In this document: positions 38,914-43,816 of the stretch, piece after piece
Layout of the letters: the number at the start of each line of letters is the position of its first letter
Position numbering within the stretch: the stretch's first letter is position 1
Made by a program: the position numbers and the translations under genes
Virus record (IMG/VR): IMGVR_UViG_3300013296_000013
Coordinates: 29,312 to 93,311 of that record
Length of the DNA: 64,000 nt
Reading direction: 5' to 3' (one strand)
Source of the DNA: a virus
Taxonomy: Duplodnaviria; Caudoviricetes
The notes under the pieces: generated by a model
Databases searched by the model: none
Told to the model about the DNA's origin: nothing
What the model saw: only the letters and a program-made list of their open reading frames with translations

Positions 38914-39044
38914 GTTTGTATGTTCTTTCGTATTATTAATATGTTTTCATATGTTTCGTATCCCACATAGTTCATAACAAAGCAAATGTGAGCTTGACCA
39001 GCTCGTATGTCGTAATTCCTTACCGGTCAAGCTCTGTATTTATA
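38914..39044 (-). promoter_or_regulatory. gp32 leader: late promoter, hairpin and A-rich unstructured repeats
   Basis: TATAAATA 39037-39044; stem 38990-38999/39025-39034; ACATA(C/T) and ATACGA repeats. Confidence 0.6.
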
Positions 39045-39072
39045 TCACATTTTTGTAGAATTGTCAACAAGT

Positions 39073-40446
39073 TTATGCATTAGCCCGTTCACGGACTTCT
39101 GCAAGAGTGGTAAGATTGAAGAGCATACCATCAAGGAAACGCAACTTCAATTCACTGAAGACGCCATCTGGTTTATCTTCCATCCGGACGGTTTTGAACT
39201 CACCATCCACGAGGATAAGATCGAGACGACCCTTCTTCGACTTCTTACCACTATCTGTGATCGGGTCTTTGAACACATCGACCCACTCACCATCGATATA
39301 TGCAGCACTGCACTTCATCGCGAACTTCAGATCATCACGGTTATTGATCTGAAGTAGAGCGCCACCCTGGCCAAATACGACGTTATCAGCGCTGTACTTA
39401 GCGAGCATGAGCGTAAACAGAATAGAGCGGATACTCTGATGATTGATACCATCACCCCAGAGAACACGAACGTGATTGAGGACCTTGAAGCCCTTCTCGT
39501 TAGTGACCGAGCCGAAGCCTTCCTCGAGGATCTGCAGGCACTTCTTCAGAACGACAGAAGGATCACCCGAGTCAGGACGTACTACCAGAGTAGCTCCCGA
39601 GTCGATGATCTCTTGCTTGAGCGGACCGGCGTACATCTTGCACGCCTCGTAGATGTCATAACTATCGCTCACGATCGATACGATGCTGCCGGGCTTGCCG
39701 TAGATCTTGATCATATTGCGATAGCTTCCGATCTCGTTCTCCTTCTTCCAGGACGTGACCGTACTGTGTTCCATGGCAGGAACACTGAATGCCGGCATTT
39801 CCTCGGCGTCATAGAACTCTTCGGCGTACTCGAGAGCTGTGACGGTGTCCGTTCCCATGAAGTTGACCAGGTGAGCTAGACCACCGATGCCAGCCGACTC
39901 CCAGCTCGACACACCACGAGCACCGAAGTCGTGGAGCTTGAACGGAAGAAGAGCCTCATCACCACTCTCGCGAAGAGCGTGCTTGATGATCAGCTTGCTA
40001 GCGTAGCTGTTCGAAGCCACCGTGGTAGGATACCAGATAGCACGAAGCAGAGCCGTCTCGAGAAACGATGTGAGCCACCAGCACTTCGGGTCGGTATTGC
40101 GAATCCACAGAAGGATCTGACCAGGCTGAATGACTGTACCTTCGTCGACCGCATGTATCTTGACGGGAAGACGACCACCGTGCTCCTTCAGGATGTATTC
40201 CCATCCCTCACGGTAGAACGGCTCACCATGTTTAGTGATGAGCCGCTCTGCACGATCGATGTCCTTACGCTTGATCTTGCGCTTCAGGTAATCCTTTAGG
40301 AACATCTGAAGGCCAAAGAAGACCAGCTTGTCGTAGATACCGCCACGGCTCTCGATGTACGAGAACACGAACTCCGTCTTGTCGGGGTATTGACAGTACT
40401 GACTGAACTTGTAGCTGTCGCTGTTAAGAATGATGTTTTTACGCAT
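39073..40446 (-). CDS. nadV: Nicotinamide phosphoribosyltransferase
   Basis: SDSYK.S, LHDFGARG, PAMEHS, VSDSYD, VVRPDSGDP, GDGI. Confidence 0.95.
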   Translation of the reverse strand: MRKNIILNSDSYKFSQYCQYPDKTEFVFSYIESRGGIYDKLVFFGLQMFLKDYLKRKIKRKDIDRAERLITKHGEPFYREGWEYILKEHGGRLPVKIHAVDEGTVIQPGQILLWIRNTDPKCWWLTSFLETALLRAIWYPTTVASNSYASKLIIKHALRESGDEALLPFKLHDFGARGVSSWESAGIGGLAHLVNFMGTDTVTALEYAEEFYDAEEMPAFSVPAMEHSTVTSWKKENEIGSYRNMIKIYGKPGSIVSIVSDSYDIYEACKMYAGPLKQEIIDSGATLVVRPDSGDPSVVLKKCLQILEEGFGSVTNEKGFKVLNHVRVLWGDGINHQSIRSILFTLMLAKYSADNVVFGQGGALLQINNRDDLKFAMKCSAAYIDGEWVDVFKDPITDSGKKSKKGRLDLILVDGEFKTVRMEDKPDGVFSELKLRFLDGMLFNLTTLAEVRERANA

Positions 40447-40495
40447 TTGATAAACTCCTTATCAAAGATAGAGGTAGAGCGCCTATCGCTTACCT
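40447..40495 (-). promoter_or_regulatory. Two-hairpin RNA leader motif, copy B (nadV)
   Basis: GGTA-AGCG-ATAGG-CGCT-C-TACC, then TTTGATAA-GGAGT-TTATCAAA-TG. Confidence 0.75.
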
Positions 40496-40675
40496 GACAT
40501 TAATTTGTTTTGTACACTTTGGGCAGTCTATGTAATAGACTTCATCACATCCACCACCATAATCATAGTGGACGAATGATTGAACTTCTGACTGAGTGTA
40601 TTCCAGGATCGAAGCGCAGTTCTTACAAGTGACTCGTTTCACCCATCCTGGATCATGTCCAACGATACTCACCAT
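40490..40675 (-). CDS. Zinc-ribbon protein
   Basis: CKNCASILEY...CPKC. Confidence 0.7.
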   Translation of the reverse strand: MVSIVGHDPGWVKRVTCKNCASILEYTQSEVQSFVHYDYGGGCDEVYYIDCPKCTKQINVR

Positions 40676-41763
40676 TACATTATCAGATCGATGCTAGGAA
40701 CGAAAGACTGGATGATGTCGGCGTGATCGTCGAAGAGGTGTTCACGGCGGACATCGATGAATGGAACCCACTTAGCGGTTTCGGCGTCATCACATCCCTT
40801 CACTTTTGGGAGCTTCCATTCGCCGCCGTTGAGCACGATATGCGCTGCGAACGTAATTGATCGCCCAAGCAGTGAACGATTAGGATGGCAGAAGTCACGA
40901 ATAGATCGGATAGAACCGCGTAGAACCTTTTGCGGTACATCGATCATAGTCTCCTCTGATAATTCACGAAGTATTCCATCGGTCGGCGTCATATCAGGCT
41001 TGATAAAGGTCTTCTCACGATTGCTCCATCCGCCGGCGTTGAAATAACCGCCAGGTAGAGCCCATAGTCCTTTACCAGGACTCGACTTACGCTTGATCAG
41101 AAGGATATGGCCAGCCTGAACGACTACAGCGTCGACCGTGATAGCACAGCTGGGATAGTCAAGACTAGCATAGCTCTTCTTGCGATCATCGATGACTCTC
41201 TTCTCGGCCATAATGTAAGCGAACTCGGGAGTCTCGCGGAATTTCATAAGAAAAGAAACAACCGATGGACGCATGACTCCAGTCAAGAAGCTCGGATTGA
41301 ACTTCTCGCTGAAATACATGTCGCGGATCTGAGTGGCGTCGAGGATCTCGATGAGGTCTATGCCAACTCGCTCCCACTGAGGAAACATCTCGAGATATTC
41401 TTTCGTCTCGAGATCTTTCGCGTGGCCGATCAATCCAATGCGGTCGCTAGGAACAGTGTGTTTAGCGACGTGAGTCTGGATGCGAGCAACCCAGGCGTCA
41501 TAATCATAAAGGGTGTCATGAGTGCACTCGATAACGAACTTCGTTCCAGTGAACTCCTGGATTTTCAGAAGTTCAGGAGCGAGCATCTGCATTCGCTCAG
41601 CTGCAGTCCATGGGTGTTTGAAATCGCGAGGGCGATGAGCCGAACCGAGGATTACTACGACTTGGTTGGCGAGCTTTCCGGCACGTTCGAGTAGTTCGAA
41701 GTGAGCGTTGTGTGGTGCTTGAAAGCGTCCGATGACGGCGAGTGTGTCAAATTGCTTAGGCAT
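40675..41763 (-). CDS. nadM: Bifunctional NMN adenylyltransferase / Nudix ADP-ribose pyrophosphatase (NadM-Nudix)
   Basis: IGRFQAPHNAH; ATQIR; GLWALPGG...RELSEET Nudix box; DDA. Confidence 0.95.
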   Translation of the reverse strand: MPKQFDTLAVIGRFQAPHNAHFELLERAGKLANQVVVILGSAHRPRDFKHPWTAAERMQMLAPELLKIQEFTGTKFVIECTHDTLYDYDAWVARIQTHVAKHTVPSDRIGLIGHAKDLETKEYLEMFPQWERVGIDLIEILDATQIRDMYFSEKFNPSFLTGVMRPSVVSFLMKFRETPEFAYIMAEKRVIDDRKKSYASLDYPSCAITVDAVVVQAGHILLIKRKSSPGKGLWALPGGYFNAGGWSNREKTFIKPDMTPTDGILRELSEETMIDVPQKVLRGSIRSIRDFCHPNRSLLGRSITFAAHIVLNGGEWKLPKVKGCDDAETAKWVPFIDVRREHLFDDHADIIQSFVPSIDLIM

Positions 41764-41829
41764 GGTATCGCAAAACTCCTTTGCGTTATGTAATGGATGA
41801 GCGTCTATCGCTATCCGAGATTATTTATT
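41764..41829 (-). promoter_or_regulatory. Late-type promoter plus two-hairpin RNA leader motif, copy A (nadM)
   Basis: AATAAATA, then GGAT-AGCG-ATAGA-CGCT-C-ATCC, then CGCAAA-GGAGT-TTTGCG. Confidence 0.75.
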
Positions 41830-41872
41830 CGTCGAGATCTGGTTCTTCTGTTTCTTAGAGAAACTCACTCAG

Positions 41873-42091
41873 TCATCCGAAGAATGTACGACCTTGATAT
41901 GTCACTTTCATCGGCGTGATCGGAAGCTCTTTGATCAGCTTCTCTTTTCCAGTGTTCTCATTCACTTCGTAGAGCTGATATAGAGGAACATCTGGAATAT
42001 CATCACCAACTACTAAAGAGTTCCAACACTTCTTAGCGAACTGCCATTCAGTGCTATATCGATTATGTCGTTTTAAAGTCTCATTAGCCAT
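41873..42091 (-). CDS. Hypothetical protein
   Basis: Coupled ORF. Confidence 0.55.
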   Translation of the reverse strand: MANETLKRHNRYSTEWQFAKKCWNSLVVGDDIPDVPLYQLYEVNENTGKEKLIKELPITPMKVTYQGRTFFG

Positions 42092-42351: not shown

Positions 42352-42359
42352 ACTATATT

Positions 42360-42938
42360 CTAACTCTGGAATTTGTCAAGGGTTATTTTTTTGAACTTGT
42401 CAAGGTCATATTTCATGAATGGCTGATACTTACGAATCTTTAACGACAAGTTCTTCCATATCGGATCATGTTCCATAACTTTATTCCATCGTGCATAACA
42501 ACCTGTTAGATGCATCAATATGATTAGAGTCTCGATACATATCTCTTTACGGAGATATAATTTGATTATTTCGGGATGACGCCCGTCACTGACTCTAAAA
42601 TTGTCATCGAATGATTGTTCCAGTTTAGAGAGATCTTGTGAGAAGTTGTAACTGAGAGATTGGTTTCGTTTAAGCCAATCTCTGTATTTCCTTTCAGCAG
42701 CGTCAGAGACAAGTTCTCCGGGCCAGATCCTGACATCATCGATAAGATTAGCGATGATATATCCTGTTGGATCTCTTTGTTTTGAAAGTTTTTCGAAGTA
42801 ATAACGATCTTTACGGGATTCGAACGTACTCGCTTTAGCATTTGTTCTACCACCGTATCTAGTAAAATCGTATCCTTCTTTTGTGAAGTGTTGTTTAAGT
42901 GCAAGATAAGTTCGGTAGACATCAAAACCAGTCATCAT
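42360..42938 (-). CDS. Helicase loader gp59
   Basis: YLALKQHFT...YDF..Y.G, RKDRYYFEKL. Confidence 0.9.
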   Translation of the reverse strand: MMTGFDVYRTYLALKQHFTKEGYDFTRYGGRTNAKASTFESRKDRYYFEKLSKQRDPTGYIIANLIDDVRIWPGELVSDAAERKYRDWLKRNQSLSYNFSQDLSKLEQSFDDNFRVSDGRHPEIIKLYLRKEICIETLIILMHLTGCYARWNKVMEHDPIWKNLSLKIRKYQPFMKYDLDKFKKITLDKFQS

Positions 42939-43741: not shown

Positions 43742-43816
43742 TGGCGCCCTCGGCAGGAGTCGAACCCGCACCTGATTGTTTAGAAGACAATAGCTCTTCC
43801 ATTAAGCTACGAGGGC
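43742..43816 (-). tRNA. tRNA-Arg (UCU)
   Basis: GCCCTCG acceptor stem, anticodon loop CT-TCT-AA, GGTTCGACTCC T-arm, encoded CCA. Confidence 0.95.

Follow-up and report, generated by a model that had tools for sequence, protein, structure and literature searches.

Two classes of riboswitch, NAD+-I (the nadA motif) and NAD+-II (the pnuC motif), are cis-regulatory RNAs located before genes for NAD biosynthesis and transport, and in NAD+-II the Shine-Dalgarno sequence (SD) belongs to the regulated structure. Bacterial nadM-nadV operons are found under the control of NrtR operators; NrtR is a Nudix-related, ADP-ribose-responsive repressor that binds a sequence-conserved DNA palindrome. Outside NAD metabolism, the guanidine-II (mini-ykkC) riboswitch is formed by two small covarying hairpins with ACGR loops, which are joined by an unconserved, variable linker and close on guanidinium. 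CsrA and RsmA bind GGA in hairpin loops overlapping the SD. Autogenous operators include those of E. coli thrS (read by ThrRS), T4 and RB69 gene 43 (DNA polymerase) and MS2 replicase (coat protein), and the Bacillus PyrR binding loops.

In phages, nadV and nadM constitute NARP2, a pathway that rebuilds NAD+ after NAD-depleting bacterial immunity, and the KVP40 operon in E. coli was reported to cause excess NAD+ production, a cost in PRPP and toxicity (10.1101/2024.02.11.579819). Post-transcriptional control of the nadV/nadM pathway was mentioned neither in that paper nor in the other literature searched, in which NAD+-I and NAD+-II were not reported for nadV, nadM or phages. We analyzed a window of 64,000 nucleotides (the whole stretch of DNA under study) from a T4-like phage, in which nadM and nadV are each preceded by a leader of two hairpins. 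The data showed that this element is a structured cis-regulatory RNA, which is conserved at the RNA level and located almost exclusively before NAD-synthesis genes. No paper describing it was found in the literature search.

The nadM and nadV leaders of the window

The genes and features described here are on the minus strand. The nadM-Nudix gene (40675-41763, 362 aa; Pfam CTP_transf_like and NUDIX) encodes a bifunctional enzyme, NMN adenylyltransferase with ADP-ribose pyrophosphatase, and its homologues in cultured phages carry the NadM/Nudix annotation. The nadV gene (39073-40446, 457 aa; Pfam NAMPT_N and NAPRTase) encodes nicotinamide phosphoribosyltransferase (Nampt). Between them lies a 61-aa ORF (40490-40675), zinc-ribbon-like with two CxxC pairs, which matched phrog_2834 (unknown function) at 2e-14 and no Pfam family. 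The start of this ORF overlaps the stop of nadM (TAATG), and its UAA stop (40492-40490) falls within the 5' arm of nadV hairpin 1. Upstream of nadM, two small ORFs (42351-42091 and 42091-41873) lead into its leader. A megablast search of the locus against cultured phages gave no match.

Hairpin 1 of the nadM leader (41795-41816), GGAU-AGCG-AUAGA-CGCU-(C)-AUCC, consists of an 8-bp stem, from which a single C bulges, and a pentaloop, AUAGA (41808-41804), on a closing G-C pair. After a linker of 9 nt, hairpin 2 (41769-41785; -4.5 kcal/mol) carries the SD in a GGAGU loop on a 6-bp stem, CGCAAA/UUUGCG, and ends 5 nt upstream of the AUG (41763-41761). Hairpin 1 of the nadV leader (40473-40494), GGUA-AGCG-AUAGG-CGCU-(C)-UACC, is built alike, except that the outer pairs are swapped to GGUA/UACC and the loop is AUAGG (40486-40482). 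The linker that follows is 6 nt long, and UCUAUC in the nadV linker is complementary to the hairpin 1 loop. Hairpin 2 of nadV (40446-40466; -4.0 kcal/mol), UUUGAUAA-GGAGU-UUAUCAAA, has an 8-bp A/U-rich stem and a GGAGU loop, and the final A of this stem doubles as the first base of the AUG (40446-40444). The distance from the end of hairpin 1 to the AUG is 28-42 nt in the window. The minimum free energy and centroid structures calculated with ViennaRNA both consisted of exactly these two hairpins in each leader, with folding energies of -14.7 kcal/mol for nadM (z = -2.3) and -14.3 kcal/mol for nadV (z = -1.9). No U-run follows either hairpin, and a terminator scan was empty at both sites.

The core AGCGATAGRCGCT occurred exactly twice in the window, and likewise in the whole 93-kb record. 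The covariance model R1 matched the nadM leader at 41767-41822 (47.3 bits, E = 6e-7 in its own record) and the nadV leader at 40446-40500 (41.0 bits, E = 1e-5 in its own record). Even at E <= 5, the R1 scan of the 93-kb record returned nothing beyond these two sites, which bears out an earlier note on this DNA that had seen the motif before no other gene in the window. Rfam 15 at gathering thresholds returned only tRNA across the whole window, the sole tRNA of which is tRNA-Arg(UCU), and at E <= 10 the region 40300-42000 gave only three chance matches below threshold, to families of miRNA and sRNA. No family matched in this comparison, NAD+-I and NAD+-II included, on which the earlier note had made the novelty of the motif depend.

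Two promoter candidates were identified, each a consensus match only. The late-type (NATAAATA-like) candidate AATAAATA (41822-41829) would place +1 at G41816, the first base of nadM hairpin 1. ATAAATA was present eight times on the minus (coding) strand as opposed to a single plus-strand copy, and several of the copies lie 25-35 nt before an ORF; the frequency of exact TATAAATA was not above chance. With this strand bias and spacing, the suggestion that a late-type promoter starts the RNA at hairpin 1 is plausible. The sigma-70-like candidate TTGACA-16-TATAGT (42352-42379; 11 of 12 positions match) precedes the two small ORFs, and nadM may also be transcribed from this early promoter through them.

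Distribution and covariation of the motif

More than 100 phage contigs contained about 190 further copies. Synechococcus phage B23 and Xanthomonas phages LucasX and RTH11 are cultured carriers, and three of 16 sampled NadM-encoding Pseudomonadota genomes carry the motif before nadM and nadV. In the bacterial genome G024 the motif is flanked by chromosomal genes (HypF, HypB, an MFS transporter and an RNase D-like exonuclease), and one bacterial genome has an extra G+C-rich hairpin between hairpin 1 and the SD region. Wherever both enzymes were looked for in a motif carrier, be it a whole phage record, a cultured phage or a bacterial genome, NadM-Nudix and NadV were both encoded; the motif-bearing contigs apparently without nadV are only 4-40% complete, and the absence is uninformative. 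No motif preceded nadV in five loci from bacterial MAGs, the NadV proteins of which share 41-53% identity with that of the window, and a NadM query gave no clear homologue in the four of these MAGs that were searched (one weak partial match, 24 bits). The canonical AUAGA hairpin was absent from eight cultured phages (RsoM2USA, PVA23, VspSw_1, BUCT608, CcrRogue, leB, 50AhydR13PP and Ah1) and from ACP17.

The specificity for NAD genes that the earlier note had proposed was confirmed in whole records. Every solid match in 11 whole phage records (about 2.4 Mb) was in the NAD cluster; these records are the 93-kb record itself, with its two leaders, and ten others (2.33 Mb), in which all matches with E < 0.01 were confined to that cluster. 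When both strands of 80 nadM loci (877 kb) were searched, all 136 matches were on the gene strand. The downstream gene was nadV in 57 cases, nadM in 52 and another gene in 26, and one match lacked a downstream ORF. Of the 26, three represent start-codon miscalls at the beginning of nadM, and the remainder are mostly three small-ORF families heading nadM operons, plus nadA once.

We analyzed base pairing in family alignments, on which the evidence for covariation rests, the two copies in the window being insufficient as proof by themselves. All 15 base pairs showed double changes. Among 133 distinct sequences, 85.7% of paired cells were complementary in comparison with 53.9% in shuffles, and the covariation score was 0.742 versus 0.172. 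The corresponding ranges over all alignments were 83-86% of paired cells versus 54-56% when shuffled and 28-45% when the partners were slid, and scores of 0.69-0.75 versus 0.17-0.20. On the sense strand, 37 G.U pairs were counted against 19 A.C pairs. This excess and the double changes uphold the conservation at the RNA level claimed in the earlier note.

Hairpin 1 has a median stability of -7.9 kcal/mol, and hairpin 2, which is A/U-rich, one of -3.0 kcal/mol. In 56 leaders the linker was 1-12 nt long, with a median of 7, and contained few G residues (20 in 388 nt), and hairpin 2 ended between -3 and +5 relative to the AUG. An invariant AGCG-ATAGR-CGCT core with a bulged C had been described from the window; this holds for the two window copies, but only the G-AUAGA-C loop is fixed in the family, in which about seven nucleotides are conserved apart from the SD. 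The alternative pairing of GCUC in hairpin 1 with GAGU of the SD loop, proposed from the same two copies, found no support in the 56 leaders, as the 3' arm of hairpin 1 paired with the SD region no better within a leader (-2.45 kcal/mol) than in permutations between unrelated leaders (-2.78 kcal/mol). A complement of the loop was present in the linker of only 2 of the 56 leaders, with no conserved loop-linker pseudoknot, and no alternative fold or pseudoknot was conserved in the family.

The loop was AUAGA in 124 of the 136 matches. The variants AAAGA, AGAGA, AUAAA and GUAGA are tolerated, and position 2 of the loop most often changes from U to C. Loop variants tended to match between the two leaders of one genome (permutation p = 0.0006 in the viral set, a signal that comes from few events): both leaders carry AUAGG in L003 and AGAGA in L174, and two bacterial genomes each have ACAGA in both leaders. 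Mixed loops were found in the window (AUAGA and AUAGG) and in L104, L105, L164 and L177. The concordant variants hint at a co-evolving macromolecular reader. A tRNA-Arg(UCU) reader was also considered, as the loop holds an AGA codon, and was rejected; the loop has only 5 nt, the codon is lost in AUAAA and AGUGA, and the idea has no logical connection with NAD.

Possible readers of the leader

The leader most likely sets the translation level of the NAD-synthesis enzymes. Since no mutually exclusive fold is conserved, we tentatively favor a cis-acting operator of translation to which a trans-acting reader, probably NadM-Nudix or NadV, would bind. Hairpin 1, a stable stem displaying the near-invariant A-U-A-G-A pentaloop, would be the recognition site for this reader. 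Because the A/U-rich stem of hairpin 2 is weak, the GGAG of the SD is in its loop and its 3' arm lies at or over the AUG, this hairpin would have a stability that the 30S subunit can just open. A reader on hairpin 1, 5-12 unstructured nucleotides upstream, would stand at the 5' edge of the ribosome footprint, and once bound it could block 30S binding or stabilize hairpin 2, reducing translation. The only feature that points to repression as the sign of the regulation is the weak hairpin masking the SD and the AUG. A hairpin with a sequence-specific loop does lie inside the 30S footprint of the start codon, as in an operator. Ribosomes ending the 61-aa ORF would have to melt nadV hairpin 1, which would couple translation of nadV to the nadM operon.

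The reader is not a host-specific or an extra phage protein, as the motif is present in Synechococcus and Xanthomonas phages and in bacteria. We infer its identity from the company of the element: NadM-Nudix and NadV, the enzymes that always accompany it, would be the likeliest readers. In the data analyzed here the motif always came with both enzymes together, so comparative genomics does not tell which of them reads it, if either does. Comparison of NadM from motif-bearing and motif-free genomes, which is confounded by phylogeny, revealed no distinctive basic insertion or patch and only scattered, mostly hydrophobic differences. An enzyme as reader would provide feedback on a costly, PRPP-consuming pathway, possibly tuned by substrate or product. 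The excess NAD+, PRPP cost and toxicity of the KVP40 operon fit a need for such feedback control (10.1101/2024.02.11.579819).

Autogenous operators resemble the leader in being short hairpins with a specific loop and a free stem just 5' of or over the SD, in being gene-specific, and in needing no alternative fold. Unlike them, the leader precedes two or three cistrons (nadM, nadV, nadA and small ORFs), has a second conserved hairpin presenting the SD, shows no sequence similarity to them, and has a reader that is so far a candidate. CsrA/RsmA sites share the two-site layout and the A-GGA-G that hairpin 2 shows in its loop at the ribosome-binding site. However, the leader is confined to NAD genes, in phages of cyanobacteria and proteobacteria, and a CsrA-type reading was rejected as the hairpin 1 loop has no GGA.

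It is rather unlikely that the leader is a riboswitch, in which the AUAGA and GGAG loops would close on NAD+, NMN, ADP-ribose, nicotinamide or PRPP and lock the SD loop. It would then be a third, structurally new class for the NAD pathway, similar to guanidine-II, and, with the same modest likelihood, would allow phages and some bacteria to translate their NAD-rebuilding enzymes only upon NAD+ depletion (for example by Thoeris, DSR or other NADases). The restriction to one metabolic pathway, with the motif placed singly on nadM, on nadV and once on nadA, suits such a sensor, and a loop nearly invariant across cyanobacterial and proteobacterial phages and bacteria is also expected from an unchanging small-molecule ligand, which counts against the operator. 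As in guanidine-II, two covarying stems with conservation limited to the loops are joined by a variable, unconserved linker, and the ribosome-binding site is at the second hairpin. However, the AUAGA and GGAGU-type loops are mutually different, non-complementary and not ACGR, the conservation of the second loop is explained by the SD, the genes are those of NAD synthesis, and the Rfam models gave no match. NAD+-I and NAD+-II have internal-loop domains or a pseudoknot, whereas the leader consists of two simple hairpins with no Rfam 15 match at E <= 10. The U to C change at loop position 2 would preserve a pair with the G of the GGAG loop, although the two loops lack Watson-Crick complementarity. 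Cellular NAD+ is millimolar, and a small, low-affinity pocket could suffice at that concentration. On the other hand, some seven conserved nucleotides besides the SD are few, and the family has no conserved alternative fold or pseudoknot to act as an expression platform. The extra G+C-rich hairpin in one bacterial genome, the tolerance of the four loop variants, and the joint change of the loop in both leaders of some genomes, which is unexpected for a fixed ligand, also argue against a metabolite.

A constitutive element that serves general host machinery and gives a fixed level, either as an mRNA stabilizer or processing signal, in which RNase E would cut the A/U-rich linker between two hairpins that protect the RNA, or as a 30S/S1 enhancer or standby site, is unlikely. 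It would be consistent with an A/U-rich, G-poor linker, which resembles RNase E and S1 sites, with function in very different hosts, and with several phages that have no AUAGA hairpin and still loop out the SD of nadV or nadM as GGAGU. Hairpin 1 would be at the 5' end of the transcript where a promoter sits just upstream, but not in 13 of the 57 nadV leaders, in which the upstream stop codon is inside hairpin 1. An invariant pentaloop is needless for a general stabilizer or enhancer, and confinement to NAD genes is unexpected of one; the 93-kb record holds just two copies, and about 2.3 Mb of other phage genomes gave none away from these genes. A feature of the DNA, that is, an NrtR-type operator, an intrinsic terminator, or a chance or mobile repeat, is very improbable. 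At the DNA level hairpin 1 forms an inverted repeat, one bacterial nadV locus has a perfect NrtR-type palindrome, and NrtR has the same target genes; its logic would also be the same if NadM-Nudix reads the leader through its Nudix domain. In contrast with the NrtR palindrome, the arms of the leader covary rather than keep their sequence, and the signal is strand-specific, with all matches on the gene strand and G.U exceeding A.C pairs on the sense strand, so the leader acts as RNA. This covariation pattern and strand bias contradict the DNA-level reading; moreover, there is no U-tract after either hairpin, and a genome holds just two copies, before the same genes each time.

Implications for NAD+ rebuilding in phages

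The element is widespread and matches no Rfam family and no paper found. It is short (about 55 nt) and present in the cultured phages LucasX, RTH11 and B23, and is therefore directly testable at the bench. Its presence on each gene singly shows that this NAD+-rebuilding route of counter-defence comes under post-transcriptional control. If the reader is NadM-Nudix or NadV, as tentatively favored here, that enzyme would be a new addition to the metabolic enzymes that repress translation by binding RNA. If it is a metabolite, the element would represent a new class of riboswitch that senses the immune state of the host directly.

The NAD operon of the window

The two NAD genes lie on the minus strand of an uncultured viral contig (93 kb, estimated completeness 55%). 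A sigma-70-like promoter (42379-42352) precedes two small ORFs, which are followed by nadM-Nudix (41763-40675), a 61-aa zinc-ribbon-like ORF with two CxxC pairs (40675-40490; phrog_2834, function unassigned), nadV (40446-39073) and gene 32, which marks the phage as T4-like. The two leader sequences quoted in an earlier note were found where it had placed them, all on the minus strand: hairpin 1 and hairpin 2 occupy 41816-41795 and 41785-41769 in the nadM leader, and 40494-40473 and 40466-40446 in the nadV leader. The MFE and centroid folds of both leaders consisted of exactly these two hairpins.

The start of the 61-aa ORF overlaps the nadM stop (TAATG), which points to translational coupling to nadM. 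Its UAA stop falls within the 5' arm of nadV hairpin 1, and an upstream stop codon was located inside hairpin 1 in 13 of the 57 nadV leaders; ribosomes terminating there would have to melt the hairpin, so that nadV translation would be coupled to that of the upstream operon. Most relatives do not have the 61-aa ORF, so its product is an improbable candidate for a universal reader of the leader RNA. A similar C-terminal CxxC peptide was seen 5' of the nadV leader at one relative locus (L008). The sole tRNA of the window, a tRNA-Arg(UCU) (43742-43816, minus strand), lies 2 kb upstream of nadM. The AUAGA or AUAGG loop of hairpin 1 ends in the Arg codons AGA or AGG read by this tRNA, a match that is probably coincidental, since many phages encode tRNA-Arg(UCU) and the loop is just five nucleotides long.

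A late promoter had also been proposed to start the transcript close to hairpin 1. The candidate AATAAATA (41829-41822, minus strand), which fits the NATAAATA late-promoter type, would make the first transcript base the first base of hairpin 1; the consensus fit holds, and the start itself is predicted from the consensus only. The minus (coding) strand of the whole window contained eight copies of ATAAATA and the plus strand one; several copies stand 25-35 nt 5' of an ORF, and this distribution suggests NATAAATA-type late promoters in the phage. In other phages ATAAATA recurred 5-7 nt 5' of hairpin 1, in leaders of nadM and of small ORFs. The gene 32 leader (38914-39070, minus strand) contains a TTGACA-type hexamer, an exact TATAAATA at 39044-39037, and, 5' of the start codon at about 39029-38990, a long inverted repeat with imperfect arms that recalls the autoregulatory leader of T4 gene 32.

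The RNA family and its distribution

A covariance model of the two-hairpin leader, R1 (54 positions, 15 pairs), was built on 41 leaders 5' of nadV or nadM in related viral contigs. As the earlier note had noticed, the motif stood before no other gene in the window: R1 matched the two sites only (47.3 and 41.0 bits), and across the full record it matched these same sites and nothing else, even at E <= 5. Two copies of the 13-nt core were counted in the window, and the whole record contained no others. The same architecture was present in nearly all relative loci, obtained with NadV (38-67% identity, 41 contigs) and with NadM (80 more loci); R1 gave 51 matches in the first set, 15 in a second one and 136 in the third, that of the 80 nadM loci. 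No Rfam family matched. In the literature searched, no riboswitch, leader or hairpin was described for nadV or nadM, and the paper on the NARP2 pathway (10.1101/2024.02.11.579819) mentions none.

Covariation was analyzed on 133 distinct sequences. Paired cells amounted to 85.7%, compared with 53.9% after shuffling and 32-45% when partners were slid; double changes were present in 15 of 15 pairs, and the covariation score was 0.742 against 0.172. Covariation in the family alignment is strong and extends the compensatory change first seen between the two window stems to every pair. G.U pairs exceeded A.C pairs (37 vs 19) and all 136 matches at the 80 nadM loci were on the gene strand, which shows that the structure acts as a sense-strand RNA and bears out the proposed RNA-level conservation.

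The stem of hairpin 1 has 7-11 bp of free sequence (median dG -7.9 kcal/mol) and is at times interrupted, 3-4 pairs away from the loop, by a bulge or small internal loop. The AGCG/CGCU stem and bulged C, listed as invariant in the earlier note, proved peculiar to the window phage and its closest relatives. The pentaloop was AUAGA in 124 of 136 copies (rare variants AUAGG, ACAGA, AGAGA, AAAGA, AUAAA and GUAGA) and, in the 124 copies that have letters at the closing pair, was closed by G-C in 120. A G-poor linker (20 G in 388 nt) of 1-12 nt, median 7, leads to hairpin 2, whose A/U-rich stem of 5-8 bp has a median dG of just -3.0 kcal/mol. Its loop keeps GGA invariant (GGAGU, GGAUU, GGAAC and others), and its 3' arm terminates at -3 to +5 relative to the AUG.

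Three cultured phages carried the complete motif 5' of both genes: Synechococcus phage B23 and Xanthomonas phages LucasX and RTH11, the nadV loop of RTH11 being GUAGA. The AUAGA hairpin was not found in nine others, yet in several of them the SD still lies in a GGAGU loop. In Ralstonia phage RsoM2USA the leaders of both NAD genes (L064:3890-3982; L097, reverse complement, about 1410-1503) retain two hairpins and an SD within a GGAGU loop, while the loop of the first hairpin contains CGAA, not AUAGA; these leaders may represent a divergent form of the element. NadM-Nudix was encoded in 16 of 401 sampled Pseudomonadota genomes, and three of the 16 carried the motif 5' of both nadM and nadV, with AUAGA in one and ACAGA in two. 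In one motif-bearing genome the neighbours were ordinary chromosomal genes (HypF, HypB, an MFS transporter and an RNase D-like exonuclease). Both leaders of one bacterial genome (L186:1423-1511, 2750-2820) have an extra G+C-rich hairpin (GGGGAUUCC) inserted after hairpin 1, ahead of the SD region. No motif was found 5' of nadV in five bacterial MAG loci (NadV 41-53% identical to that of the window), and a search of four of their genomes with the window NadM gave no clear homologue (one weak partial match, 24 bits). At one of the five loci, in an alphaproteobacterial MAG (L054:2400-2445), nadV is instead preceded closely by a perfect DNA palindrome, TAAGTCAAATA...TATTTGACTTA, which looks like an NrtR-type operator.

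Reading of the leader

The alternative GCUC-GAGU pairing suggested for the window was not a family feature: the 3' arm of hairpin 1 paired with its own SD region at -2.45 kcal/mol versus -2.78 kcal/mol with unrelated leaders, and 99.6% of permutations were at least as good. A complement of the loop was present in the linker of only 2 of 56 leaders, the window's nadV leader being one. Both tests being negative, neither an alternative fold nor a pseudoknot is conserved. This leaves a layout in which a stable recognition hairpin is followed by an unstructured spacer and then by a marginally stable hairpin masking the SD flanks and the AUG, as in protein-read translational operators.

The host range and the bacterial copies exclude both an extra phage protein and a host-specific one as the reader, and the only genes always accompanying the element are nadM-Nudix and nadV. 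An autogenous operator read by an enzyme is our leading explanation, a tentative one; nothing distinctive was found in NadM of motif-bearing compared with motif-free genomes. Within a genome, the two leaders tended to share their loop variant (permutation p = 0.0006, viral set), with few events and with mixed genomes, the window included; two bacterial genomes, each with a pair of ACAGA leaders, are consistent with this concordance, which hints at a co-evolving macromolecule as the loop reader. A riboswitch resembling guanidine-II ranks second and is unlikely, and a constitutive stability or translation element, ranked third, is slightly less probable again. Explanations at the DNA level come last and are very improbable, being at odds with both the covariation and the strand data.

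Genes behind the leader

R1 was also run on 2.33 Mb from ten other whole phage records, where all matches at E < 0.01 were in the NAD cluster; two weak matches outside it (E 0.17 and 0.36) were without hairpin 1. The gene 3' of the 136 leaders was classed automatically as nadV in 57, nadM in 52 and other in 26, with no ORF in one; three of the 26 were start-codon miscalls at a nadM start. The others include three small-ORF families (phrog_37251, phrog_12218 and phrog_33851), whose proteins matched no Pfam family and whose operons continue into nadM, as well as one phrog_1843 protein and two more small ORFs without a family. In large phages, many nadM operons have a member of one of the three families (88-136 aa, function unassigned) as the first gene after the leader (L107:5467-5820, L118:5673-5996, L114:5627-5998). 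At another relative locus (L006:2432-2911), a gene for an ADP-ribose-binding Macro domain separates nadM from the nadV leader, and ORFs of its BLAST cluster were present in 13 of the first 42 loci.

One leader precedes nadA, encoding quinolinate synthase (Pfam 1e-83), on a viral contig (L150:4851-5792) where nadM and nadV, each with a leader of its own, come after nadA. NadA belongs to de novo NAD synthesis. Its presence among the leader-bearing genes indicates that the element marks a small NAD-synthesis regulon, not salvage alone.
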